Below are positions 3,697-24,492 of a stretch of 32,795 nucleotides of DNA, piece after piece. Within the stretch, counting starts at the first letter, position 1, and every line of letters starts with the position of its first letter. The notes beneath the pieces were generated by a model. The model saw nothing but the letters and a program-made list of their open reading frames with translations, was not told the DNA's origin and searched no databases. A program made the position numbers and the translations under genes. The stretch comes from a virus (taxonomy: Duplodnaviria > Heunggongvirae > Uroviricota > Caudoviricetes), in IMG/VR virus record IMGVR_UViG_3300035703_000003; one strand, 5' to 3'.

Positions 3697-3946
3697 TAAT
3701 ATTTTCCATTAATTGTTTTACCTCTTCAGGATTCATTTTGCTCAAAGGCAAGCCGCCGCCTTCGACCAAAACTTTACCGTTATAGTAAATTTGCGGAACA
3801 GTTCTATGGCCCTGTTCCATAATCCACTCACGTTGAGCAGGATCTAAATCAATTCTAATTTCTTCAAATTCGAAGTTATTTTTTGTAAGATAATCCTTAG
3901 CAAGGGTGCAATATCCGCAACCTGCTTTGCTGTAAACTGTAATCAT
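3683..3946 (-). CDS. glutaredoxin (RNR reductant)
   Basis: CGYC active site, TVPQI and GG motifs; adjacent to nrdB. Confidence 0.9.
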   Translation of the reverse strand: MITVYSKAGCGYCTLAKDYLTKNNFEFEEIRIDLDPAQREWIMEQGHRTVPQIYYNGKVLVEGGGLPLSKMNPEEVKQLMENINAQS

Positions 3947-5073
3947 AATGAAAATCCTTTAAATGTGTCACCACTAACATCTTGCTTAACTGCGCCGATT
4001 GTATATGACGAGATTTCTGTTTCTTGTGGTGCCACTTGAACTTCTGCACCTGCAATCCATTTTTGTGTCCACGGAAGTGGATTTGTCGCTTGATTGTAAA
4101 TTTTAGGAAGTGAAACATGAGACATGCGCTTTGCTGCAATATGTTCAATATATTCACATAGTAATTGCTTATTAAGTCCTAGCATACTTCCATCCTTAAA
4201 CAAATAATCTGCCCAGGCTTTTTCTTGTTCAACTGCATCGGAAAACATTTTGATACATGCTTCTTCTGTTTCAACTGCAATTGTTTCAAAGTCGGGATCG
4301 TCTTTACGCAATGTTTTTAATAGCAACTGTGTGCTACCGAGATGCAAATTTTCATCACGAGCAATTAACTTAATAATCTTAGCATTGCCTTCCATTTTCT
4401 TTAGTTCAGCAAATGCCCACGAACAAGCAAAGCTAACATAGAAACGAACACCTTCAAGAATGTTAACACTCATCAATGCAAGCCATAGTTTCTTTTTTAG
4501 TTCGTAAAGATCAACAACAACAGTATTGCCGTTAACAGTATGAGTGCCTTCTCCTAAAAGATTGTAGTAACCAGCAAGCTCAATTAGTTCGTCATAATTT
4601 TTTGAGATGTCTTCTGCACAATCAATGATTTCTTCGATATCTAGCATCCCATCAAAAATCTTACTTGGATTGCTGTAGATATTACGGATAATATGTGTAT
4701 AACTACGGCTATGAATTGTCTCGCTAAACGTCCAAGTTATAATCCAGTTTTCAAGTTCTGGCAAACTAACAATACTACCAAATGATTCGGCTGGTGCTCT
4801 TCCTTGCACAGAATCTAATAGAATTTGACGCTTTAGATTTGAAGTAAAAATGTGTTGTTCATGCTCAGTTAGAGCTTTAAAATCTTTTGCATCTTTCATC
4901 ACGTCTACTTCTTCTGGTCGCCAAAAGAACCCAAGTTGCTTGTCAGTGAACTTGTCAAAGCTAGGATACTTCATTGTATCATATCGTTGGATAGTAGGCC
5001 CTCCACTTGGATCGAGGAAGGCCTTTACTGTTGTATGATTGCTTTTATTATTAATATCAAATACTGATGCCAT
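3943..5073 (-). CDS. nrdB: ribonucleotide reductase class Ia beta subunit
   Basis: FFWRPEEVD, LLDSVQGR, ETIHSRSYT, EGVRFYVSF, IARDENLH diiron and tyrosyl radical motifs. Confidence 0.97.
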   Translation of the reverse strand: MASVFDINNKSNHTTVKAFLDPSGGPTIQRYDTMKYPSFDKFTDKQLGFFWRPEEVDVMKDAKDFKALTEHEQHIFTSNLKRQILLDSVQGRAPAESFGSIVSLPELENWIITWTFSETIHSRSYTHIIRNIYSNPSKIFDGMLDIEEIIDCAEDISKNYDELIELAGYYNLLGEGTHTVNGNTVVVDLYELKKKLWLALMSVNILEGVRFYVSFACSWAFAELKKMEGNAKIIKLIARDENLHLGSTQLLLKTLRKDDPDFETIAVETEEACIKMFSDAVEQEKAWADYLFKDGSMLGLNKQLLCEYIEHIAAKRMSHVSLPKIYNQATNPLPWTQKWIAGAEVQVAPQETEISSYTIGAVKQDVSGDTFKGFSL

Positions 5074-5082
5074 GGTGTTCCT

Positions 5083-7395
5083 TTAAATTGTGCAACTGTC
5101 GCAAGCGGCTTCATCTGCGAACCCGTTTACATTTTCTGTTTCTACCACTATATTTGATTGTGCAAATTTGTCAATGTCAATTTCGCCAGCGCCGTCGTAT
5201 GTATTAAAATAATACAACTGCTTACCGCCGTACTTATAAAACATTAACATATGCTGAATCATAACAGACATCGGGATTTTTTCATCTTCGAAAAATTGTG
5301 GGTTATACGAAGTGTTTACACTAATACCCTGGTCAATATATTTTTGCAATACTGCCATAATCTTTAGGTAACCTTCTGGTGATTTTTGATCCCACAATAA
5401 TTCATATTTGCTTTTTAATTTATGAATACCAGGCACTACTTGCTTTAATACACCGTGCTTACTTTGTTTAACACTTACAAGAGAGCGTGGTGGTTCTACA
5501 CCGTTTGTAGCATTACTGATTTGTGCAGATGTCTCTGCAGGCATAAGTGCCATTAATGTAGAATTACGAATACCAGTATTACGCAATTGTTCTCTTAAAC
5601 TGTCCCAATCCATACGCTCTTGATGTGCAACAAGTTCATCTACATCACGCTTGTATGTGTCAATTGGTAGAACACCGTCACTATATTTGGTTTCTTCATT
5701 CCAAAGACATGCACCTTGTTCTGCTGCCAAATCTGCACTAGCTTTAATTAAATAATAACTCCATGCTTCTGCATATTCGTCAATCATTGCTAGATTTGGA
5801 TTGCTGTAAGTCATATCATTTTTAGCCATCCAGTATGCAAGGTTGATGATACCAACGCCAAGAGGACGTCTGCCCATTGTAGCACGATATGCAGCTTTGA
5901 CGGGATAACTCTGATAGCTCAATAGTGCATCTAACCCACGTACAGCAAGTTCACACGCTTTTGCAAAATCGGACGGCTTTTTAATGTTGCCCCAATTAAT
6001 AGCAGAAAGGGTGCAAAGTGCAATCTCGCCCTCTTCATCGTTGAAATCATTTAATGGTTTTGTTGGTAGATTAATTTCGGTGCAGAGATTGCTTTGTTTA
6101 ATAGGTGCAACTTCTGGTTTAAATGATCCATGTGTGTTTGCATGGTCAACATTCATTAGATAGATACGTCCAGTATCTTTACGTTCGCCCATAAACGAGC
6201 TAAACAGTTCAAGTGCGCTAACTACTTTCTTGCGTATCCGTGTATTGCGCTCTGCAGTTTCATATAATTCTTTAAATTTATCTTGGTTAGCAAAAAATGC
6301 ATCATACAGGCCCGGCACATCTGCAGGACTGAATAGTGTAATATTTCCGCCAGTAATTAAGCGTTCATACATAAGTTTATTAAATTGCACACCATAATCC
6401 ATATGACGCACACGGTTATCTTCGATACCTTTGTTGTTTTTAAGAACAAGTAAATCTTCTACTTCGTAATGCCAAATGGGATAATAAAGTGTTGCAGCAC
6501 CATTACGCACACCGCCTTGGCTGCATGAACGTGTTGCTGCTTGAAACATTTTATAGAAAGGAATTACTCCTGTGTGATAAGCATCACCTTTACGAATAGG
6601 AGAACCAATAGCACGGATACTGCCTGCGCCAATGCCAATGCCTGCTTTTTGTGAAACATACTTAACAATGCTACTAGTAGTAGCGTTAATGCTGTCTAAA
6701 CTATCGCCTGTTTCAATAAGCACACAACTAGAAAATTGCCTTTGAGGAGTTCTAACACCTGCCATAACAGGAGTAGGCAAGCTAATGTCATGCAAGCTAA
6801 TAGCATCATAATAATCCTTAACCCAACGGAGGCGAGTTTCTTTTGGGTAATTGCTGAATAGCGTTGCGGCTATCAGCATGTATGCCATTTGTGGTGTTTC
6901 TTTTATATCGTTTGTTACTCTGTTCTGAACAAGATATTTCCCACGCCACTGTTCCATACTAACGTAAGTTAGTGATTCATCACGTTCGTGTTTAACGTAT
7001 GTGTTTAGTTCATTCCATTCATTTTCAGTGTATGCAGTGAGCAATTCAGAATCATAAAATCCTTCTGCAACATTTCGGTTAATAAGTTCAAGTATATGAC
7101 ATGGTTCGTATGATCCGTATACCATTTTACGTAAATGATATACAATTAGTCTACCAGCAACTGATTGATAGTTTGGAGTTTCTTCGCTAATCAAATCAGC
7201 GGCTGCTTTAATAAGAGTTTCTTGAATTTCGTCTGTAGTAATGCCATTGTAAAACTGAATAGCACTTTTTAGTTCAACTTCACTAGGGCTAACGCCTGCT
7301 ATACCTTCGCAAGCGTGAAACACTACTTTATGTAGTTTATCAAGATTTAAAATTTCTTTTGAACCATTTCTTTTTATTACTTGTATATTGCTCAT
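5083..7395 (-). CDS. nrdA: ribonucleotide reductase class Ia alpha subunit with ATP cone
   Basis: N-terminal VIKRNG ATP cone, PTPVMAG, FSSCVL, SNLCTEI, C-terminal CDSC. Confidence 0.98.
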   Translation of the reverse strand: MSNIQVIKRNGSKEILNLDKLHKVVFHACEGIAGVSPSEVELKSAIQFYNGITTDEIQETLIKAAADLISEETPNYQSVAGRLIVYHLRKMVYGSYEPCHILELINRNVAEGFYDSELLTAYTENEWNELNTYVKHERDESLTYVSMEQWRGKYLVQNRVTNDIKETPQMAYMLIAATLFSNYPKETRLRWVKDYYDAISLHDISLPTPVMAGVRTPQRQFSSCVLIETGDSLDSINATTSSIVKYVSQKAGIGIGAGSIRAIGSPIRKGDAYHTGVIPFYKMFQAATRSCSQGGVRNGAATLYYPIWHYEVEDLLVLKNNKGIEDNRVRHMDYGVQFNKLMYERLITGGNITLFSPADVPGLYDAFFANQDKFKELYETAERNTRIRKKVVSALELFSSFMGERKDTGRIYLMNVDHANTHGSFKPEVAPIKQSNLCTEINLPTKPLNDFNDEEGEIALCTLSAINWGNIKKPSDFAKACELAVRGLDALLSYQSYPVKAAYRATMGRRPLGVGIINLAYWMAKNDMTYSNPNLAMIDEYAEAWSYYLIKASADLAAEQGACLWNEETKYSDGVLPIDTYKRDVDELVAHQERMDWDSLREQLRNTGIRNSTLMALMPAETSAQISNATNGVEPPRSLVSVKQSKHGVLKQVVPGIHKLKSKYELLWDQKSPEGYLKIMAVLQKYIDQGISVNTSYNPQFFEDEKIPMSVMIQHMLMFYKYGGKQLYYFNTYDGAGEIDIDKFAQSNIVVETENVNGFADEAACDSCTI

Positions 7396-8582: not shown

Positions 8583-9257
8583 TTAGTTGAGATTATAAAA
8601 CTCAGCAACACGACCTGCCCATTTTTCTTCCCAATATTTGAACTCATCGGGATCTACTTCGAACAGTTGCCATTCACACTCTCTACTACACATAAAAATT
8701 GCAGCCGTTTCTATATTTGTTTTATATAATTCGTTATGGGCCATACCGTATGCTGCTGCCTGCATAAAGTAATCTTCAATCCATTCACGCTTTTTTGGTT
8801 TGTTAGTTTGTTTGAAGTCCATTATGGCAGACTTGCCTTTCCACATACCAACAAGGTCAGTAGTGCCGGCATATAAACCCGGGTAGCAAAGATTAACTTC
8901 ACTGCCCCAAACCTCAGTAATATGTGGTTCTATGTTTTTAATCACAGTATCTGCCATTAGTCTCGACTGGACTGTTGCATCACCTGTATATAGTTCATTC
9001 TTGACCCAATGCTCTAATATGGCGTGCATATAAGTTCCGGTATTTGCTGCTTCTGTTACAACACGTTGGGCTTCTTGTTCGCCTACACGTTGTTTCCAGT
9101 TGTTAAGAGCTTCACGTTTTTCTTTGGGTTTTGTTTTGTCTAGAATAGTAGTTACACTTGGGACAGGATCTCCCCAAGGGTTTTCATATAAACGTTTTCC
9201 GTCTATTGATTTACGTTTTAATTCTTGATATGGATATGGTGAGGTTATTGTTAACAT
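8583..9257 (-). CDS. PD-(D/E)XK exonuclease (RecB/Cas4-like phage family)
   Basis: PSVTTIL, GTYMHAILE, YAGTTDLVG...IMDFKQT, QAAAY motifs. Confidence 0.9.
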   Translation of the reverse strand: MLTITSPYPYQELKRKSIDGKRLYENPWGDPVPSVTTILDKTKPKEKREALNNWKQRVGEQEAQRVVTEAANTGTYMHAILEHWVKNELYTGDATVQSRLMADTVIKNIEPHITEVWGSEVNLCYPGLYAGTTDLVGMWKGKSAIMDFKQTNKPKKREWIEDYFMQAAAYGMAHNELYKTNIETAAIFMCSRECEWQLFEVDPDEFKYWEEKWAGRVAEFYNLN

Positions 9258-13953: not shown

Positions 13954-15030
13954 TTAGCTTGGAGTCCAACGATGGCGTGGAACAAGTTTAACTTTTTCTG
14001 TGTTTGCTGCATAACCTTCTCCGCCGGGCTGACCGTCTGTGGTAGCGGTGATATCTGCAGTTTGTTGATCTAACTGATCGATTATGTCATTCTTTACGCT
14101 TTGGACTTTTAATACCAAGTCAAAGAGCAAGGGAATAGACTTGCTCTCTGGCATTGCTAAAATTTTTGCTTGCTTTTGTGGACTTACTTTACTTGTCTTT
14201 AACCAATCAGTGAACCCAGTTGCCAGTTCTTTTAATCTGCCTGCTCTACTCATTTGATTAACATAAGTGTAAATGATATTTTTCATATCGCTTAGACCTT
14301 GCTGCGGTGCAAGTAAGCTATCAATTTCGTTTGCATGTGTATTTGCTAACGAAACAATTTCACTAACTGCACTAGTGTCTATCTTAGTTTGATATGATGT
14401 AATTCTAGAATTCAATACAATAGCATCCGACGAGTTCAACGCAGACACATCATTTAACGGAACACCTTCCGCATCTCCGAAATTTTTATAATATAAGTGT
14501 GCAGCAATACCTACACTACTGTTAGCAACTCGCTTACCTAAATCACTTTGTGGATTAACAGTATATGTTACTTTGTTTGGTGTGAATGAAATACCTGCGT
14601 CGGTAGTAGTAAAAGGTTCGCCTGGATACCATAGCAAATCTCCAAATGCATAACCTTTAAAATTAGCAGGAGTATTGCGTTCCATTATAGCAAACACTTG
14701 TGCCATATCGGCACCTAGTTTTTGTCTCCAGTCCTCACCTTTGCCTGCTGTAGTGATTGCGGTTTGCATTTCGTCAGGTGAAGTATATTTGTCTTTACCC
14801 CAACCGTTTTTACCTACTAAAACAAATGTGCCGTCTGGTTCACGCCCCCAATAAACAGCAATACGTCCGTCCCATTTGATGTTAAGTGCTGTTGCTCCGC
14901 TGCCCATATCTTGTAATATTTTTGCAGCTTGCAATGCACCTTGACTGCCGTCAACGAAAACCAAATCTTCTAAGTGTTGCCACTCACGACCTACTTTAGC
15001 AGCTTCGAATAAAAAGTCAGATGCTCTCAT
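13954..15030 (-). CDS. RNA-ligase-like covalent nucleotidyltransferase (probably DUF6267-like)
   Basis: HLEDL, motif I KWDG, motif III-like FGDLLW, motif IV EGYAA, motif V KVKLV.R; start reassigned to MRASDFLFE (ATGA overlap). Confidence 0.65.
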   Translation of the reverse strand: MRASDFLFEAAKVGREWQHLEDLVFVDGSQGALQAAKILQDMGSGATALNIKWDGRIAVYWGREPDGTFVLVGKNGWGKDKYTSPDEMQTAITTAGKGEDWRQKLGADMAQVFAIMERNTPANFKGYAFGDLLWYPGEPFTTTDAGISFTPNKVTYTVNPQSDLGKRVANSSVGIAAHLYYKNFGDAEGVPLNDVSALNSSDAIVLNSRITSYQTKIDTSAVSEIVSLANTHANEIDSLLAPQQGLSDMKNIIYTYVNQMSRAGRLKELATGFTDWLKTSKVSPQKQAKILAMPESKSIPLLFDLVLKVQSVKNDIIDQLDQQTADITATTDGQPGGEGYAANTEKVKLVPRHRWTPS

Positions 15031-15788
15031 GACAACTCTTTCCAATTAGTATCTGTTCTTAGATCAGCTAGCATTTGTTGACCGTTATCTGGCAATGCGT
15101 TCATTATAGCTTCGACACTGCCCAAGTCGTTTGCAGTTGCAGTAGGACCTAACAATATCTTAGCAACATCATTTATATCCTTAGACACCATGCTGTCATC
15201 TTCACGACGCAATAGACCTTTGAACCCACTCCACTTTAATCCTTTTTGTTTTGCAAGATAAGACATTGCAATATGTTTATTAACACCTTTAAAAGGACTA
15301 CCTTGTGGAATAGCGTGTGTATGGAATTTAGAAACATCTGCTGCATCAGGTACAACCATAATGTCAACTTGATGCGAGTGATCTTCCATTGGCACTCTAA
15401 CATGAACACTAACACCGCTTTGACCTGTTTGCAATCCTGCAAGGTCAAATACTTGTCGTAATTGTTTTCTTATTAATTTTGGATCTTGTAATTTGAATTC
15501 ACGGGCTAGTGTATCTTGATCAACGATTAAATCTAAATCGCCGCTTACTTTTCCTGGTGTGGGTGTTGCGCCACTACCAATAGGAATAGCAGTTGCTCCT
15601 GTTTGTGAAAGCACTTTATTGACAGTAGCAATAATATTAGGAATCATTTCATGTGCAAAAGGTTGTGCATCAGCGAAGACATTACCGCCTTCTCTAATTA
15701 TTAACTCTTTTTGAAGCAGACGTTTAACTCGTGGACCTCGTCCTGCCCTACGCTTCGTTGTCCCACTTAGGATGTCTTTTATCTTCAA
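15027..15788 (-). CDS. Pol-beta superfamily (PolX-like) nucleotidyltransferase
   Basis: IGSG...SGDLDLIVD (GS, DxD), third Asp in QVDIMVV, PolX-like thumb YLAKQKGLKWSGFKGL; probable TTG start giving MKIKDIL (track starts at 15842). Confidence 0.7.
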   Translation of the reverse strand: MKIKDILSGTTKRRAGRGPRVKRLLQKELIIREGGNVFADAQPFAHEMIPNIIATVNKVLSQTGATAIPIGSGATPTPGKVSGDLDLIVDQDTLAREFKLQDPKLIRKQLRQVFDLAGLQTGQSGVSVHVRVPMEDHSHQVDIMVVPDAADVSKFHTHAIPQGSPFKGVNKHIAMSYLAKQKGLKWSGFKGLLRREDDSMVSKDINDVAKILLGPTATANDLGSVEAIMNALPDNGQQMLADLRTDTNWKELS

Positions 15789-16020
15789 TTTTTGCCATTC
15801 CTCTACTAAACTTTTTAGGATCCTGTAATCGAATACTAGCAAGCAATCGTTTGTTTAAATCTTCGGCAACCTCAGGATCGAAACTTTCATTAATCAACTT
15901 TATTAGATTAATTGCCGTAACAATAACTTGTTGTGCATTAGATTCAACAATTTGCTTTTTATCCCGTTTGGGGGACATTGCATTAATTTCTTCTAAAATG
16001 GATCTTGTATTTTTCTTCAT
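15748..16020 (-). CDS. hypothetical protein (90 aa)
   Basis: ATG 8 nt after TAAATA; first gene of the NTase/ligase operon. Confidence 0.7.
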   Translation of the reverse strand: MKKNTRSILEEINAMSPKRDKKQIVESNAQQVIVTAINLIKLINESFDPEVAEDLNKRLLASIRLQDPKKFSRGMAKIEDKRHPKWDNEA

Positions 16021-16283: not shown

Positions 16284-17681
16284 TTATTCTCTTCGTTTAA
16301 GCAGACTTTTTAGTTTATCTGTATTGACGTTAGAATGCGTCATTACAGGTGCTGCAGGTTGTGCAGCTTGCTCTCCTGGTGTGATAGAGCTTTTAGTTTT
16401 TAGCTTTTGGTAAATGCTAGTTACTTGATTTTCGCCGCTATCTTGTTCATCTTCATCAAGGTCTGTAATACGCAACGTTTCCATGTTGTATCCTAAATCC
16501 AACTTAGTCCCTACACCGCTGCTACTACGTGTTTTCATAAACTGAATTTGAACACGACCACGTTCACGCATAGCACGACTACTAAAGATACCGATCAAGT
16601 TATCTGCAGTGTTGATCTTAGAAATACCACCTGCGATATGGCTATGGTCAAATTCAATCTCATCAACTGCACTACGGTTTAGCTGCGATGCTGTAACGAA
16701 CAGTATGTGCAATTCAATTGCTAAGTTACGCAATTCTTCCGATACATACTTGTCCTTAATAAACTGGTCACTTGGATTTACTTTTACACTAACAGGCATC
16801 ATAAGGTCTAGATAGTCAACAAACAATGCATCTACTTTGATACGCTTTTGTATCTGGTATTCTTTAATATATGCACGTATGTCGTTAACAGTTGCGCCGT
16901 TAGGCATTTGAATGATTTGTAAAATGCCTGCTTTTTTAGATGCTATTTTAACCTTAAGTTCTACATCCTCTGGGTTACGCATAACATTAACGGTGCTCAT
17001 GTTTGTAAGCATAGCGTCTAGTCGCATCGAACAAAGTTCTTCGCTAAGTTCAAGACTTACGTAAACAACGTTTTTACCTTGTAACGCCCAATTCAATGCC
17101 ATGTTCTGCATGAATAGCGATTTACCAGAACCAGAACCGCCAGCAAAGATGTTTAGTTCACCTGGGTTAAATCCACCATATAAAATTTTATCGAGGCTTG
17201 CCCAGCCTGTGCTGTTTTGTCCTCTGTTGTCTTTAATCTTCTGAATACGTCCAGCAGGATCGTCCCAATAGTTAAGACCAAAGTTTTTAGCAAGTCCAAT
17301 ACCTACTGCATCTTTGATAAGTTGTTCTACTGCACCATACTCGTGTTTTTCTAATTTATCGGCACTTTGTAAGATTGCATTTTCTAACGCTTTATGTCTA
17401 CAGAATTTTTCGTATTCATCCATAAACCATTTTTTATGGTCATCGGTAACTTTGCCTGAAATGTCATCAAACTGATGTTGTGTTTTTGCTTTAATTTGTT
17501 CTAGTGTAGGAAGATCGTTATACTTCCTTACATGTTCATCCATAAAATCTATAGTAGGCTGATACTTCCTAGAAAAATACTTTGGATTAGTAATAGCGTT
17601 ACACCGAACATACAAGTCCTTTTCTGCTAGTAAAAATTCAATGTATAACTTTTGCAGATCGTCTGTATATTCTTCACTCAT
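16284..17681 (-). CDS. replicative DNA helicase (DnaB/T4 gp41-like)
   Basis: GGSGSGKS Walker A, SLEL, VDYLDL, TASQLNR, KINTAD, KTR motifs. Confidence 0.95.
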   Translation of the reverse strand: MSEEYTDDLQKLYIEFLLAEKDLYVRCNAITNPKYFSRKYQPTIDFMDEHVRKYNDLPTLEQIKAKTQHQFDDISGKVTDDHKKWFMDEYEKFCRHKALENAILQSADKLEKHEYGAVEQLIKDAVGIGLAKNFGLNYWDDPAGRIQKIKDNRGQNSTGWASLDKILYGGFNPGELNIFAGGSGSGKSLFMQNMALNWALQGKNVVYVSLELSEELCSMRLDAMLTNMSTVNVMRNPEDVELKVKIASKKAGILQIIQMPNGATVNDIRAYIKEYQIQKRIKVDALFVDYLDLMMPVSVKVNPSDQFIKDKYVSEELRNLAIELHILFVTASQLNRSAVDEIEFDHSHIAGGISKINTADNLIGIFSSRAMRERGRVQIQFMKTRSSSGVGTKLDLGYNMETLRITDLDEDEQDSGENQVTSIYQKLKTKSSITPGEQAAQPAAPVMTHSNVNTDKLKSLLKRRE

Positions 17682-17887
17682 CTTGATAACTTCCTAACAA
17701 CGTATTCGTCTACTGACAAATTCTCATAATGCAACATTCTTATCATTGTGTTAATAGATATAAAATTAACTACTTCGTAATAATTTGTCAACCAAACAAA
17801 TTTACCCGACGCTAACTTAATAGGTATCCACGCAAACTTTTTATTTTCTTCTACTGTTACATTAGTTATGGCACTTATATGTTTCAT
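17678..17887 (-). CDS. hypothetical protein (69 aa)
   Basis: ATGA overlaps with primase and helicase. Confidence 0.6.
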   Translation of the reverse strand: MKHISAITNVTVEENKKFAWIPIKLASGKFVWLTNYYEVVNFISINTMIRMLHYENLSVDEYVVRKLSR

Positions 17888-18900
17888 TTACAATGTTGTT
17901 TTGCAAGTATTTGGATCTTTGTGCTGCTAGTTTCTGCACTGTCCAAGATACTACGCACGGTGAACAATCTGCCATATTTTGCAACTGCTTCACCTGCGTC
18001 TTTACAATTTTCCCATGGCGGAAAACTAACACTCCAACCACGTTTAACTGCAACCTTTACTGTTTCCAAACCAGGCTTATCAAAGTCTGGTAGTAGGATA
18101 ATTTGTTTATCTAGCTGGTCAATGATACTGCATTGGGTAGCATTGGGTGTATTGCCGTTCAGTGCAATGCCTCCAACTAGTAGCGCATCTAACTGTCCTT
18201 CAGTGACAATTACATAATCATGTGTTGTCTGTGCATCTAGATTATACACAAAGTTTTTAGGACTTTGAAGAAAGTATTTTGGTGTCTCTAATGGACGATC
18301 AGGTAGTGTCCAACGAGCCGTATAACCCACAATTGTATTATTATGATAAAACGGTAAGATAACCCTATTAGCAAAATGGCTATGAGACGACCAGTGCCAC
18401 TTATCATAAAAGTCTAGACTGCGAGCTGAGATATATTCACATGCAATGATAAACTTTTCTAATTGTTTATCATCTAGTTCTGACGTATCAACATCTTGCA
18501 GCAACTTTGAATATGGAGGTAGTTCGTGTTCTTTCCAATATACTTTTACTTGCTCGACTGTAGCAACAGGTAGAAACTGTTTTGCAATGTTTTCTGTTTC
18601 TGCTTGCTTGAGCAACTCAAAGTTGACTCTTTGCACTTGTGCAGGATCTGTTCCAAACTTAACTAACAGATCTTTAAGGCGATCATTAATTCGTTTGCCC
18701 GGGCTCCAGCCTGTTTTGTAGCCGCAGTTAAAACAATTGTATTGAAATTTATCGTCAACAAACATAATACCGCCTCTACGACGAGTATCGGAACGGTGAC
18801 CACGAGTGGCACACATTGGACAGTTTCCACTGATCCAACCGCTTGGCGTTTGCCGCCAGCCGTGTGGTATTTGCTGTCGAATAAATTCTAAGGCTGTCAT
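17884..18900 (-). CDS. DNA primase (gp61/DnaG-like)
   Basis: Zn finger CPMC...CFNC; TOPRIM VTEGQLDA...PDFDKPG. Confidence 0.92.
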   Translation of the reverse strand: MTALEFIRQQIPHGWRQTPSGWISGNCPMCATRGHRSDTRRRGGIMFVDDKFQYNCFNCGYKTGWSPGKRINDRLKDLLVKFGTDPAQVQRVNFELLKQAETENIAKQFLPVATVEQVKVYWKEHELPPYSKLLQDVDTSELDDKQLEKFIIACEYISARSLDFYDKWHWSSHSHFANRVILPFYHNNTIVGYTARWTLPDRPLETPKYFLQSPKNFVYNLDAQTTHDYVIVTEGQLDALLVGGIALNGNTPNATQCSIIDQLDKQIILLPDFDKPGLETVKVAVKRGWSVSFPPWENCKDAGEAVAKYGRLFTVRSILDSAETSSTKIQILAKQHCK

Positions 18901-19704: not shown

Positions 19705-19743
19705 TTTTAAATCTCCAATACTATTTATTTGCTAAGTAATAAT

Positions 19744-20124
19744 ATGACAACACTGCCAAAGAAATATCAAACACTTTTAGACGATTTTCCGTTCTTAACA
19801 CTCGTTTCTTACGGAGGCAACGAGTATATAGGAATTATACAAAATATAGATAATAATCTAGCAAGTATGTATAATTTTGAGAATGTCAAAACTTTAGAAG
19901 ATAAGAAAGAATTTTTAACATTGGGCGAAGAATGGTGGTGGGGAACAAATCGAATGATTCCTATTAACATTATTTTCAAAAGTAAATTTGAAAAATTTAG
20001 ACCCGCATTAGTTACATTCAGTCTTAAAGACTTTGAAGTAATACACGGACCTATTATTAGTTTAAGTAATATCATCCAACGCAGAGTTAAACGCAGAAAT
20101 ATCCAACTAATAAGAAAATTTTAG
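19744..20124 (+). CDS. hypothetical protein (126 aa); only well-supported plus-strand gene
   Basis: Fills the gap between minus-strand genes; ATG 19744 follows TAAGTA; divergent from 19704. Confidence 0.7.
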   Translation: MTTLPKKYQTLLDDFPFLTLVSYGGNEYIGIIQNIDNNLASMYNFENVKTLEDKKEFLTLGEEWWWGTNRMIPINIIFKSKFEKFRPALVTFSLKDFEVIHGPIISLSNIIQRRVKRRNIQLIRKF

Positions 20125-20870
20125 GTTTTTCTTAATTTAGTATTAACTTGTGGATCAATCACTTCTAAACGTCTAGCTGTTGTTTTTTCTGATGCATGTA
20201 TCAATAAAGCACGTCTAATTGTATTAGTTTTATTTGGCATAGTGCTATGCAACAGTCGTGGGTGCCAAGACACAAAACTACCCGCAGGCGCAGTATATTG
20301 TTTATAATTATCAGCAAAAAATATATCCCAGCTTGCAGAATTATCTCTCATATCAATTGCATCATAAAAATATTTGTGTGTGCCAGGAACATAACCTGTT
20401 GCGCCATTGTCTTCATTAAAATCGCACATCATCACCATAAATTGTAACCCTAACAATTCTTTAGAATAGCGAAATTCTTTAAAACGATACGGTGTGTCAA
20501 CATGAGGACGGCGAAAATTCATACCGGGATATAAGACAATAAAATCTTGCACATGCCATACCCAATTACCAAATCCAAACACTTGGTCAACAGACGGTGA
20601 TAGGTGTGCTTTTATTTCTTCAATATATGGATGATGAACATGTGGCGTCCAGTAATATGCCCAATCAACTTCGTTAAGAGGATCTTGCATTACTGATACA
20701 TTATTCCAACCATACCACTTTTTATCTTTGTCATGTCCTCGCTGTGGCAGTAACGATGCTGCGTAATTATCTAATTCTGCAATCTTATCAGGATCAAAAA
20801 TATTTTGGTGAACTGTGAACCCTTCGTGCTCAATATCTCTGATAAATCTTTCCCGGTCTATTTCTTGCAT
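20121..20870 (-). CDS. Fe(II)/2-oxoglutarate dioxygenase, PhyH-like
   Basis: HVD...NGATGYVPGTH...WHPRLLHST...N.T...RRA; HxD...H facial triad. Confidence 0.85.
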   Translation of the reverse strand: MQEIDRERFIRDIEHEGFTVHQNIFDPDKIAELDNYAASLLPQRGHDKDKKWYGWNNVSVMQDPLNEVDWAYYWTPHVHHPYIEEIKAHLSPSVDQVFGFGNWVWHVQDFIVLYPGMNFRRPHVDTPYRFKEFRYSKELLGLQFMVMMCDFNEDNGATGYVPGTHKYFYDAIDMRDNSASWDIFFADNYKQYTAPAGSFVSWHPRLLHSTMPNKTNTIRRALLIHASEKTTARRLEVIDPQVNTKLRKT

Positions 20871-20878
20871 CTTTATTC

Positions 20879-21436
20879 CTAACTCTGTAACTTTTCACAT
20901 ATCACATTCATATGCACTACTACTGCCATTGCATAACTAAACGCATGTGCTTTTTTGAAATAGTAACTACCGTCATTTGGCTTAAGCCATACTTCACGAT
21001 GTATACGATCCCAATCAATGTCTTTTGCTAGATAACGTTTCGACGGTCTGATTACTGCTAATGTAACTGCTAGCTGTTCTAAGTTTTTCGGAGCAAGTCT
21101 TTTAACTAAATCTTCATTACCTGCTAAGTGAAAAACTTGCGAACAAAATTCCGAGTGCTCTAGTAATTCCCATAACGGTTCTGTTTCCATTAACTCTTTA
21201 AGATGACTTTCGCTACGTATATCTTTATATATATTTACATTCAGTAGGTCTACTTTAAAGTACCCCTGTTCTTCTGCATCTTTGTGGTCTATAGTGCAAA
21301 CATTTTTAAAAGGGTCTACAGGGACACGATGAAAGTAAACACCTGTGTTGTGTTTACGATCTCCTAGTCTAGCAGGAACATGCTTTAGTAATTGTAAGAT
21401 GTCTTGCCTGTTCGCTAAGTCGATATCAATATCCAT
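20879..21436 (-). CDS. minimal DNA polymerase III alpha (DnaE)-like protein, 185 aa
   Basis: DIDID, HNTGVYF, FKVDLLN, QVFHL, LAVIRPS, YYFKKAHAFSYA match the DnaE palm/fingers motifs in order. Confidence 0.8.
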   Translation of the reverse strand: MDIDIDLANRQDILQLLKHVPARLGDRKHNTGVYFHRVPVDPFKNVCTIDHKDAEEQGYFKVDLLNVNIYKDIRSESHLKELMETEPLWELLEHSEFCSQVFHLAGNEDLVKRLAPKNLEQLAVTLAVIRPSKRYLAKDIDWDRIHREVWLKPNDGSYYFKKAHAFSYAMAVVVHMNVICEKLQS

Positions 21437-22086
21437 TATAGTTCCCCGTCGATAATATGACTAACCCATGCTGCATCCGCTGGATTTAAATCACGCTTTC
21501 TTGCCCAATAGTCTGCATCGATACATGCTGCTACACGATCTAACTGTTCAGCATTTAACCGTTCAATTGAGTGTTGCCCACGCTTACTGCATATAAGTAA
21601 CCAAGGACTAATCTTTCCTGTCTCTACCCAATCAGCTATTAGGTAGCCGTTTGCATCTTCCCAAAAAGTGTTAAAGTAGTCAAGCTCACTAGCATGTTCG
21701 ACAAAACGTTCTAACGCTCGTTCAACTGTTTCTTTTTTCAAATGTTCTTTAACAAATAGCCCATACATACGATCAGTCGGCCAATCTTTAAGTTTAGCTT
21801 GATTGCGAATTAACCATCGTGTGTATGCTTCTGTATCAATAACACGAGTGTTAATGCAATAGCTACCAAACTTAATAAATGCACTGTAATACTGACTGTT
21901 TACAAAATCATCAAAAGTTTTAGGTTTACTTTGCATACCTAATCTATAAAACAAATCAAATGCTTCAAAACCTGCAAACGATTCTGGCATGTCCTTTTGC
22001 ATCCATCTGCGCTTTTTATCGCACATATGAACTGCAGCGGTTCTCTCTGTTTTAAATGATTGCTTACAGTATTCGCATGTAATCAT
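21436..22086 (-). CDS. hypothetical protein with N-terminal C2H/C zinc finger (216 aa)
   Basis: CEYC...HMC; TAATG coupling to the mini-DnaE gene. Confidence 0.7.
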   Translation of the reverse strand: MITCEYCKQSFKTERTAAVHMCDKKRRWMQKDMPESFAGFEAFDLFYRLGMQSKPKTFDDFVNSQYYSAFIKFGSYCINTRVIDTEAYTRWLIRNQAKLKDWPTDRMYGLFVKEHLKKETVERALERFVEHASELDYFNTFWEDANGYLIADWVETGKISPWLLICSKRGQHSIERLNAEQLDRVAACIDADYWARKRDLNPADAAWVSHIIDGEL

Positions 22087-22547
22087 TTGAACATTTCTTT
22101 AATATCTTTTGGAGTCATCCCTTGCTGTTCCATGCGGTCAACAAAATCTTCTTTACTGTTTGTTGCAACAAGCAAATCTAACTCGTCATCATTGTAAGTA
22201 GGAAATTGACCAGCAAGCCAATCTAGTAACTTGTTTTTCTTACCACGTTTGCCAGGTGCAATCCACGGATGATACTGCGGCGATCCGATGCCTACTAGTT
22301 GTAACAACTGGTGTTGTAACTGCGGATGATGTCGTAGTATGTTGTTATGAACATTAACAAAGTCGTTAGTCATTGTTAAGTAATGAGATTGGATATCAAA
22401 GTTTTTGCTATCAATTGCACTAGTATATCTCATAAGAACAAAGATGCTAACTTTGCTTTGCTCTTCCTCGGTTAAACTATCCCACCAAGACCTGTCTCGG
22501 CAGTCAATTGCTCGCATTTCTTCTTTAATGTCTAGTTTGTTTACCAT
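22083..22547 (-). CDS. putative clamp loader small subunit (gp62-like)
   Basis: Size and motifs (LMRY.S, HPQLQ..LL, HPWI.P.K) resemble gp62-like proteins; replication context. Confidence 0.5.
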   Translation of the reverse strand: MVNKLDIKEEMRAIDCRDRSWWDSLTEEEQSKVSIFVLMRYTSAIDSKNFDIQSHYLTMTNDFVNVHNNILRHHPQLQHQLLQLVGIGSPQYHPWIAPGKRGKKNKLLDWLAGQFPTYNDDELDLLVATNSKEDFVDRMEQQGMTPKDIKEMFK

Positions 22548-23041
22548 AGGTCATCTGTGCTTAATACGTCTGGCACTTTACTTGTTTCTTTAACAAAAAA
22601 TGCACATTTCGGGTTGTCGGTCGTTTGAACTGGTATAGTTAATATGTGTCCATATTTTAATTTAGGAAAATACCATCGCATATCTTGGTATATGTTAATA
22701 ATCTCAATTTCAACAAAGTCGGGCATAAATCCAGTAATAGGATTAAACAAAAACGCTTTAAATCCTCTATCATTTAGACTTGTAATAGGCAATACTTCAG
22801 GATCGCCGACTTCGGGATCGCAAACAATAATACTCCAATCTAACGGGACTGTTATTGTGTGATTTCCCAGCCTAAGGACTGCAGCCGGACTATTGAAACT
22901 CTCTAAAAACACTAACGGAACAAATATATAATCCGCATTATGTTTATCGCTATAATCTAACACACAATATCTGATATCGTCAATCTCTTCCGGAACATAA
23001 TCTAAATCATATGTCTTATTTTCTACAGTTAATATTTTCAT
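22541..23041 (-). CDS. hypothetical protein (166 aa)
   Basis: ORF coupled to the helicase stop (TAATG). Confidence 0.7.
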   Translation of the reverse strand: MKILTVENKTYDLDYVPEEIDDIRYCVLDYSDKHNADYIFVPLVFLESFNSPAAVLRLGNHTITVPLDWSIIVCDPEVGDPEVLPITSLNDRGFKAFLFNPITGFMPDFVEIEIINIYQDMRWYFPKLKYGHILTIPVQTTDNPKCAFFVKETSKVPDVLSTDDLW

Positions 23042-24492
23042 TAATAGGTTACCTTATCTACAACAAAAGGATAATTCGCTTCTTTGTAGTATTTCTTACG
23101 TTCAGTCAAATGTCGTTTGCTAAACTTTGCACTGCTAGTGATATCCCAGATACGAACACTATCCTTATCCTTTGCTTTACGTATACCACGACCGATACTT
23201 TGTATCACCCTGACAAAACTTTTGCCAGGTTCAAGAAGGACAAGATTAAAAATACGAGGGATATTAATCCCCACCGCTGCGACTCCGTAAGTTGCCACGA
23301 TAATTTTGTTATCTGCTTCAGATACTTCATCATATTCTTCCTTTCTATCTTTTGACTTCATGCTACCACTAATAAAAACAACTTCATCTCCAAGTCGTTC
23401 TATTAGTCCTTCGCCCGTTTTAATACGGTCAACAAGAACAAGTGTGTTACCATCAAGCGATAACGTTTGTATCAAACCTGCAAGATAGTCAAGTCGTTTC
23501 TTATCAGTGGTAAGATAGGTAAGTTCGCTTTGATAGTTATTGTATGTAACGTTATCTTGCAACTGTAAAATATTAACTTCACACTGTGCAAGAACTCCTT
23601 GCTCCTGTAGTTCGCTTGCTGCTAATTGATGAACAACTTCACCTAAGCTAATCTCTAGTGTTAATCGTTCCCATTGCTCTTTAGGAACAGTCCCTGTTAG
23701 ACCCCAACGAATCGGAATGTTACTAAACGGCCCTGTTAATAGCTTCTTCAATACATCAGCTTTTGCTTGGTGAACTTCGTCTACTATAATGCAAACTACA
23801 CCTTCTGCGAAATCTGATAAACTGAAATCGCTTTCACCGTCTTTGAATTTCTTATCAATGACGTTTAAACTTTGCCATGTGCATATGGTATGTGTTTTAC
23901 CCAAGTCTTTACGATCACCAAAGTATACACCAACATCTAGACCTAGGTTAATGTAGTCTGCTTCTGTTTGAACAACTAAGTCTTTGTTTGGAACAATAAC
24001 AATACTACGTCCATACGATTCGACTAAACTGCTTAGTGCTGCAGTCATAAGTGTCTTACCAGCACCTGTCGCAATTTCTTGTAACGACTGTGGATTCGAT
24101 AAAAACTTGTTGATGATCTCCACTTGGTAATCACGTAGTATAACAGGTTCACCTGCAGCAGGATGCTTAGGCGGCCACACTTTATGGCTAAAGTGGTCTT
24201 CTGTAATTTCTGGAAATTCTAACTTCCACGGTGTTCGTTGATCTACAATATCAACTGTATACCCATCTTCTTCTAATACCGGTAGGATTGTAGGCAAGCA
24301 ATTGATAAACGTATTGCCGCCCGTAGTGAAAAATCCCACACACCCATCCCAACGACCTAGTTTATAAGCAGGACTATGGAATGCATATGGTAGTAGGAAT
24401 TTTAGTTTTTTTTCTAGTTTACGACGAGTTGTTAATTGCAAGTTTTCGATTTTACAATTAACTTCGTCTTTTAATATGATGTTACACTTCAT
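23041..24492 (-). CDS. uvsW: SF2 DNA helicase, UvsW-like
   Basis: LRDYQ, ATGAGKT, DEVH, GLTGT, GINIP, QSIGRGIR motifs. Confidence 0.88.
   Translation of the reverse strand: MKCNIILKDEVNCKIENLQLTTRRKLEKKLKFLLPYAFHSPAYKLGRWDGCVGFFTTGGNTFINCLPTILPVLEEDGYTVDIVDQRTPWKLEFPEITEDHFSHKVWPPKHPAAGEPVILRDYQVEIINKFLSNPQSLQEIATGAGKTLMTAALSSLVESYGRSIVIVPNKDLVVQTEADYINLGLDVGVYFGDRKDLGKTHTICTWQSLNVIDKKFKDGESDFSLSDFAEGVVCIIVDEVHQAKADVLKKLLTGPFSNIPIRWGLTGTVPKEQWERLTLEISLGEVVHQLAASELQEQGVLAQCEVNILQLQDNVTYNNYQSELTYLTTDKKRLDYLAGLIQTLSLDGNTLVLVDRIKTGEGLIERLGDEVVFISGSMKSKDRKEEYDEVSEADNKIIVATYGVAAVGINIPRIFNLVLLEPGKSFVRVIQSIGRGIRKAKDKDSVRIWDITSSAKFSKRHLTERKKYYKEANYPFVVDKVTY

Follow-up and report, generated by a model that had tools for sequence, protein, structure and literature searches.

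A short DnaE-type gene of an uncultured jumbo phage and its probable place in a split minimal DNA polymerase III alpha

The C-unit gene and its likeness to DnaE

The window analyzed here is a stretch of 32,795 nucleotides from an uncultured tailed phage (IMG/VR record IMGVR_UViG_3300035703_000003). The open reading frame (ORF) at 20879..21436 on its minus strand has 185 codons and an ATG start, according to the ORF list of the window and the translation. The product very probably belongs to a minimal nucleotidyltransferase of the C family (DnaE type) that is made of two subunits in the group 2.2 jumbo myoviruses, and it would form the C-terminal one. It is called the C-unit below, and the separately encoded partner is called the N-unit. 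The features of the gene are as follows.

20879..21436, minus strand: whole gene for the C-terminal part of the split minimal DNA polymerase III alpha, with the Mg2+-binding and template/fingers regions (P0001, 185 aa), from the translation, PHROG 11778, the AlphaFold2 model, VIA-align and Foldseek
21419..21433, minus strand: DIDID motif, residues 2–6 (within MDIDIDL, residues 1–7), coordinates checked against the DNA
21242..21259, minus strand: FKVDLL strand, residues 60–65, from the profile alignment, with a strand in the model at E62-66
21044..21049, minus strand: R130-P131, an invariant pair that aligns with R698-P699 of Thermus aquaticus (Taq) DnaE (..LYRPGP..), the RP motif of the fingers
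20930..20965, minus strand: YYFKKAHAFSYA, residues 158–169, matching Y-G-F-N-K-S-H-A-A-A-Y of DnaE (Taq 811–821)

The gene lies in a tightly packed minus-strand operon. The upstream ORF (216 aa) ends at 21436 with a TAA stop that overlaps the ATG of the C-unit by one base (TAATG), a Shine-Dalgarno-like GGGGA is located upstream of the start, and the downstream gene begins 8 nt past the stop. Such coupling with the neighbors indicates that the C-unit gene is intact and is not a frameshift fragment inside the window. An earlier reading of this DNA from its letters (the sequence-only reading) had reached the same view of the gene ends, and the motifs that it had pointed out, DIDID, FKVDLL, and YYFKKAHAFSYA, are confirmed in both the translation and the DNA.

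The C-unit matches PHROG 11778 ("DNA polymerase") from end to end (E = 1.1e-56, profile positions 7–195 of 197). The sole Pfam signal is DNA_pol3_finger, which stays below threshold (E = 0.078). A tblastn search with the C-unit matched 96 phage records, each from a jumbo myovirus, with identities of 51% in the PA5oct group of Pseudomonas phages, 46–47% in Sinorhizobium and Agrobacterium jumbo phages, and about 35% in the Rak2/121Q/GAP32 group. These records agree with the statement in the sequence-only reading that similar small genes are annotated in other jumbo phages; their GenBank labels vary among "hypothetical protein," "DNA polymerase," and "DNA polymerase III alpha." A HMMER search of 1.84 billion cluster representatives (E ≤ 0.001) gave 396 clusters at 50% identity, in which nearly all full-length members are 180–215 aa, and relatives occur at 594 or more IMG/VR loci. 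Most homologues start with MPDIDIDF, and the window copy starts with MDIDID. In one metagenomic protein (P0203, 233 aa), the first approximately 110 residues correspond to the N-terminal part of the C-unit and the rest resembles a C-terminus of the pseudouridine-synthase type (..HQLRKHL..GNPILGD..); this is probably a chimeric or truncated gene call.

In the alignment of 99 family members down to 30% identity (A1), D2, D4, K61, D63, R130, and P131 are invariant, and D6, H29, G32, K161, and H164 are conserved in at least 90% of the sequences. When the A1 profile was compared with all PDB sequences, DnaE chains only were matched, in three collinear pieces (best E = 7.9e-5). In this comparison, D2 and D4 align with D463 and D465 of Taq DnaE (3e0d, SMPDIDTDF, 460–468), K61 and D63 with K616 and D618, R130-P131 with R698-P699, and the YFKKAH segment with YGFNKSH (811–817). 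Taq D463, D465, and D618 are the three catalytic Asp residues of DnaE known from the literature, with D401, D403, and D555 as the E. coli equivalents.

The AlphaFold2 model of the C-unit calculated with A1 has a mean pLDDT of 95.8 and a pTM of 0.86. The best 14 matches of the model in a Foldseek search against the PDB are all DnaE chains (probability 0.90–1.00). With VIA-align, the model is superimposed on Taq DnaE 462–838 with a Z score of 9.6 (root mean square deviation of 3.8 Å, 183 aligned residues), on Mycobacterium tuberculosis DnaE1 420–808 with 9.5, and on PolC 971–1301 with 7.7. The superposition on E. coli DnaE, which the sequence-only reading had proposed, fits residues 401–781 with a Z score of 9.2 (179 aligned residues), and the best unrelated chain reaches 3.1. 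The likeness is far beyond chance, and the window ORF is a true DnaE relative. The description of the protein in the earlier reading as a drastically reduced family-C module is supported by PHROG 11778, the PDB profile, and the fold match, and its statement that all three catalytic Asp residues are kept extends to the family, in which D2, D4, and D63 do not vary.

The 185 residues of the C-unit span what takes approximately 380 residues in cellular DnaE. In the sequence alignment with Taq DnaE, approximately 94 residues are missing between DxD and the third Asp, 13 between the third Asp and RP, and 85 between RP and KSH in the fingers. Relative to E. coli DnaE 401–781, approximately 190 residues are deleted. 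Judging from the spacing, the gap between DxD and the third Asp leaves no room for a thumb.

The separately encoded N-unit and its proposed pairing with the C-unit

A Pol-beta-like palm also requires a preceding helix-strand element that bears the hG[GS] nucleotide-binding motif. The C-unit begins exactly at the DxD strand and is without a GRGS/GS motif. In every complete relative examined, the GRGS half is a separate gene of approximately 170 aa. In Pseudomonas phage vB_Pa-PAC2 (PP408249.1, PAC2), Pfam PF07733 matches a 169-aa ORF at 172846..173355, which is 43 kb from the C-unit at 129268..129870. The IMG/VR contig G005 (357.6 kb, completeness rated at 100%) has its N-unit (P0002, 173 aa) at 244.5 kb, approximately 207 kb from the C-unit at approximately 37 kb. 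The spacing of the genes varies, with 4.8 kb in RsoM2USA as the smallest value, approximately 31 kb in the 121Q group, and more than 200 kb in Phosso and G005. At least 7,905 proteins were matched as N-units.

The position of the cut is the same in all members seen. All 49 aligned N-units end with ...GVGRGSSVASY...NLDIKEFL[KR] followed by the stop. Since N-units end with EFL[KR] and C-units begin with M(P)DIDIDF, the split junction is fixed. The N-unit profile matches E. coli DnaE 270–392 (E = 6.9e-10). In the N-unit model (pLDDT 84.3), residues 64–173 match E. coli DnaE 271–393 with Z scores of 10.1–10.6, compared with 2.2 for the best unrelated chain, and the model also matches M. tuberculosis DnaE1 303–413 (Z = 12.6). 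As the N-unit maps to 271–393 and the C-unit starts at DxD, the cut in the gene falls within the palm, after the GS-motif segment and before the catalytic strand.

Both halves together map only to E. coli DnaE 271–781, with approximately 200 residues deleted, and neither half has a counterpart to residues 1–270 or to the part beyond 781. The PHP, thumb, clamp-binding, OB, and tau-binding domains are truly absent from the two-part enzyme, and the first four had already been listed as missing in the sequence-only reading. There is no intein at the EFL[KR] / M(P)DIDID junction; the halves therefore cannot be spliced and would have to act as a non-covalent heterodimer.

No N-unit was found in the window by a motif scan, by tblastn with that of PAC2, or by a six-frame profile search with filters off (best E = 0.62, compared with 1.5e-80 for the C-unit profile on the C-unit ORF). 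A PHROG scan of the other 31 window ORFs showed no polymerase piece. G002 (75 kb), whose C-unit is 88% identical to that of the window, is the closest long relative, and it has no N-unit in the 43 kb to one side or the 31 kb to the other. The only exact match found for the window protein is in an 8-kb Logan contig of SRR11566518 that is too short to reach the partner gene, and 10 kb of the window gave no megablast match in the phage collection.

The 216-aa ORF upstream of the C-unit was considered as the missing half and rejected. It has no GRGS, belongs to a C2H2-type family of its own, and is not matched by the N-unit profile. The candidacy is further weakened by G005, where another gene separates the 216-aa homologue from the C-unit.

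The two halves co-occur. The phage collection contains the C-unit in 96 records and the N-unit in 114, the latter including phages with a full-length DnaE. Counted by genus, the numbers of both halves are equal in Escherichia (34/34), Pseudomonas (11/11), Erwinia (8/8), Salmonella (8/8), Xanthomonas (4/4), and Yersinia (4/4).

Natural fusions of the halves were also found. P0200, P0272, and P0273 (375–376 aa), from different samples and archives, consist of the N-unit followed by the C-unit and carry both PHROG 11127 and PHROG 11778, and Pfam PF07733 spans the junction. In P0200, the N-part matches PHROG 11127, is 30% identical to the N-unit of G005 (E = 5e-22), and is connected with the C-unit part by a linker of approximately 10 residues. 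The genes of P0200 and P0273 are complete, and the contig of P0273 has a downstream homologue of the 264-aa gene of the window, indicating that P0273 comes from a related phage. The fusions emerged from the exhaustive HMMER search and its follow-up; a word-index search for longer, fused relatives of the window protein gave none, and a search with the N-part of the fused protein against viral contigs found nothing.

The complex of the window C-unit with the G005 N-unit was predicted with each chain having its own alignment. The prediction scored 0.91, compared with 0.00 for the best of its three controls; 58 of 80 solved complexes and 2 of 110 mismatched pairs reach this mark. At least 97% of contacts agree among the runs, and the partner has a pLDDT of 87 or higher. 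In the predicted interface, residues 1–8 of the C-unit face residues 134–147 of the N-unit, and the catalytic strand lies beside the pre-GRGS strand.

The sequence-only reading had favored a stand-alone core. This is not borne out, since the GRGS half is a separate, distant gene in relatives such as PAC2 and G005. Its suggestion of possible action with a partner subunit is supported, in that the GRGS half co-occurs genus by genus and fusions exist. It had also held that DnaE parts encoded elsewhere, as a split or intron-interrupted gene, would overturn the stand-alone view. A split gene without an intein is indeed what the relatives have, and no such part is found in the window.

Genomic context

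The C-unit gene clearly belongs to a replication/recombination module. The neighboring genes are listed below.

23041..24492, minus strand: UvsW-like SF2 DNA helicase (Pfam ResIII/Helicase_C, PHROG 16); the PAC2 orthologue is annotated UvsW
22083..23041, minus strand: conserved proteins of 166 aa (PHROG 11279) and 154 aa (PHROG 11758), between the UvsW-like helicase and the C2H2 protein
21436..22086, minus strand: 216-aa protein with an N-terminal C2H2-like zinc finger (PHROG 11058)
20121..20870, minus strand: PhyH-family Fe(II)/2-oxoglutarate dioxygenase (Pfam, E = 2e-20)
19729..20124, plus strand: 131-aa conserved gene (PHROG 11637, no Pfam match)
17884..18900, minus strand: DnaG-type primase (Pfam, PHROG)
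16284..17681, minus strand: DnaB-like replicative helicase (Pfam, PHROG)

On the minus strand, the order is an AAA protein, the UvsW-like helicase, the 166-aa, 154-aa, and 216-aa C2H2 proteins, the C-unit, the PhyH-like protein, the 131-aa gene (plus strand), a 264-aa protein, the primase, and the DnaB-like helicase. PAC2 has the same gene order. Among 80 related IMG/VR loci, 79 have the opposite-strand gene, 74 the C2H2 protein (at most 3 kb upstream), 69 the primase, and 12 the dioxygenase. These loci are close kin (54–88% identity), so that the counts do not represent independent events. The rarity of the dioxygenase indicates a variable cargo gene inside the replication module.

The 166-aa, 154-aa, and 216-aa genes are translationally coupled upstream of the C-unit, and their products are candidate replisome accessory proteins. 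The 216-aa protein equals the T4 gp59 helicase loader in length, and no evidence was found for gp59 identity. In G005 (L062, 2508-3011, plus strand), the C2H2 protein and the C-unit are separated by a 167-aa ORF that resembles a peptide deformylase by eye; coupling as tight as in the window is thus not universal. The 131-aa opposite-strand gene keeps its position and orientation in 79 of the 80 loci and apparently also in PAC2 and G005. A contig with a fused polymerase gene (L148) has, as a positional counterpart, a 119-aa opposite-strand gene.

Other genes of nucleotide metabolism and DNA processing are found farther along the window. Two adjacent ORFs show a Pol-beta-type nucleotidyltransferase (NTase) signature, IGSGA...DLDL (15027..15842, minus strand), and a ligase-like KWDG motif (13954..15045, minus strand); the former is a second, unrelated Pol-beta-fold enzyme in the window. 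Downstream in the same strand block, at 3943-7395 and 8583-9257 (both minus strand), are small and large subunits of class Ia ribonucleotide reductase (PHROG 86, 84) and a Cas4/RecB-like exonuclease (PHROG 298).

Proposed function and comparison with known systems

A mechanism can be proposed for the two-part enzyme. The C-unit would supply the metal-binding residues D2, D4, and D63, the conserved K61, and shortened fingers with the RP and KxxH motifs. The partner of approximately 170 aa, encoded outside the window, would supply the GRGS nucleotide-binding half of the Pol-beta-like palm (E. coli DnaE 271–393). The halves would associate non-covalently, without an intein, and the first strand of the C-unit (residues 1–8) would pair with the pre-GRGS strand of the partner to give one beta-sheet and one active site. 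From the relatives and the complex model, we infer that the window phage also possesses an N-unit and that the two form a heterodimer with such a composite active site.

The carriers within group 2.2 include Rak2/121Q, PA5oct, Atu_ph07, and many uncultured aquatic relatives, in which the two-part enzyme probably sits beside a family B replicative polymerase. A family B polymerase (PolB) is present in PAC2 and G005. In PAC2, the PolB matches fall in two open frames of 825 aa and 379 aa, approximately 2.5 kb apart (202949-206726), which suggests that the PolB gene itself is interrupted or split there. In the window, UvsW-like and DnaB-like helicases and a primase are found, but no PolB among the scanned ORFs.

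Beside such a replicase, the enzyme may extend primers or fill gaps during replication or recombination, as a template-dependent DNA polymerase that works distributively over short stretches. Distributive, short-stretch action is suggested by the lack of the thumb and clamp-binding parts. An accessory short-patch or primer-extending polymerase role seems most likely.

Several points weigh against this interpretation. The N-unit gene is found neither in the window nor in the closest 75-kb relative; it is known from relatives, and the partnership in the window phage is drawn from them. The partner used in the complex prediction is from G005, the C-unit of which is only 56–57% identical to that of the window. 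Halves of one solved fold can score high through likeness to DnaE structures, and the complex prediction accordingly points to a fit like that of two parts of one DnaE palm, that is, to likeness rather than to binding. Furthermore, how duplex DNA would be held without a thumb or clamp-binding domain is a difficulty for a templated polymerase. In the literature searched, no biochemical or genetic test of any family member was found.

A two-subunit enzyme that works without a template, using the DnaE palm for tailing, primer modification, or synthesis of a nucleotide signal, is a rival that we consider unlikely. The analysis speaks neither for nor decisively against the tailing or template-independent reaction that the sequence-only reading had also named. 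The deletion of the thumb, clamp-binding, and OB domains and of approximately half of the fingers would suit such an enzyme, as would the family B replicase already present in PAC2 and G005, and Pol-beta-fold enzymes generally include many non-templated transferases. However, the fingers motifs that are kept (R130-P131; K161/K162, H164) are those of DnaE and not of minimal NTases, which argues mildly against a non-templated activity, and the gene stays in the replication/recombination module near the primase and the DnaB-like and UvsW-like helicases in 69–79 of the 80 related loci.

That the 185-aa C-unit alone is the enzyme, as a stand-alone minimal nucleotidyltransferase, is very improbable. 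The invariant catalytic Asp residues, the compact and confidently folded model, and the lack of a partner gene within the window are what one would expect of it. But the C-unit is without the hG[GS] element and the first strand and helices of the palm, which a co-occurring separate gene supplies; the split point is identical in all members seen, and fused forms exist; and in the complex model, residues 1–8 pack on the partner rather than face solvent. A decaying, functionless remnant of an acquired bacterial dnaE, which one fifth of the DnaE length and the loss of most domains might suggest, can practically be dismissed in view of the 396 clusters and the 594 or more IMG/VR loci, whose products all have similar lengths, the invariant catalytic residues, the intact start with its GGGGA, and the kept synteny.

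Within the two-subunit polymerase interpretation, we regard as tentative, well below an even chance, a more specific role for the N+C mini-DnaE as a true second replisome polymerase. Inside an otherwise T4-type family-B replisome, it would follow the primase in lagging-strand synthesis or serve in synthesis primed by recombination, perhaps together with the conserved neighbors (the C2H2, 154-aa, 166-aa, and opposite-strand 131-aa proteins). If so, it would rank as the smallest C-family polymerase in nature and, in line with the proposal of Iyer et al. (2021), would serve as a model of the bacterial replicase in its ancestral form.

The family is very large, marks a major jumbo-phage group, and is the smallest known derivative of a bacterial replicative polymerase. 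A heterodimer of approximately 360 residues that keeps the DnaE chemistry would define a minimal C-family catalytic core and could explain why these phages carry both family B and family C enzymes.

Compared with bacterial DnaE and PolC (PDB 2HNH, 2HPI, 3E0D, 5LEW, 3F2B), the C-unit shares the Pol-beta-like palm with its three Asp residues, the Lys that precedes the third of them, and the fingers motifs RP and KSH. It differs in that it is one fifth the size and below the thresholds of Pfam itself, the enzyme is divided into two polypeptides inside the palm, and the hG[GS] motif is not in the same polypeptide as the catalytic Asp residues. In the cyanobacterial split-intein DnaE (dnaE-n / dnaE-c), the C-family catalytic subunit is likewise made from two distant genes, as in the relatives here; in contrast, the phage enzyme has no intein halves or extra sequence at the junction, is cut inside the palm, and is minimal instead of full-length. 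Bacillus subtilis has DnaE beside PolC, two C-family enzymes, and DnaE extends RNA primers before hand-off. The presence of a DnaE-type enzyme beside a different main replicase offers a possible analogy for an accessory primer extender, with the difference that the main replicase in PAC2 and G005 is of family B.

The closest system is the split minimal DNA polymerase III alpha that group 2.2 jumbo phages have alongside a family B polymerase, as described by comparative genomics (Iyer et al. 2021, Viruses 13:63, PMC7824862), for which a role in one-strand synthesis or in repair was suggested (PMC7824862). PF07733, the Pfam family that detects the N-unit, is the single distinguishing gene of PGC_A, the largest marine jumbo-phage cluster (Weinheimer and Aylward 2022, PMC9123017). 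In the split enzyme, the C-terminal unit corresponds to PHROG 11778 and the N-terminal unit to PHROG 11127, and it occurs in PA5oct/PAC2, 121Q, Rak2, GAP32, Atu_ph07, and XacN1. The window copy agrees with it in family, length, the start at the DxD strand, and synteny of the replication module; nothing essential differs, apart from its origin in an uncultured aquatic phage and its MDIDID start. The C-unit is thus one half of a published two-gene enzyme, and the window adds an orthologue and no new kind of system; the present analysis further locates the split precisely, maps both halves onto DnaE structures, and describes natural fusions and a predicted interface.

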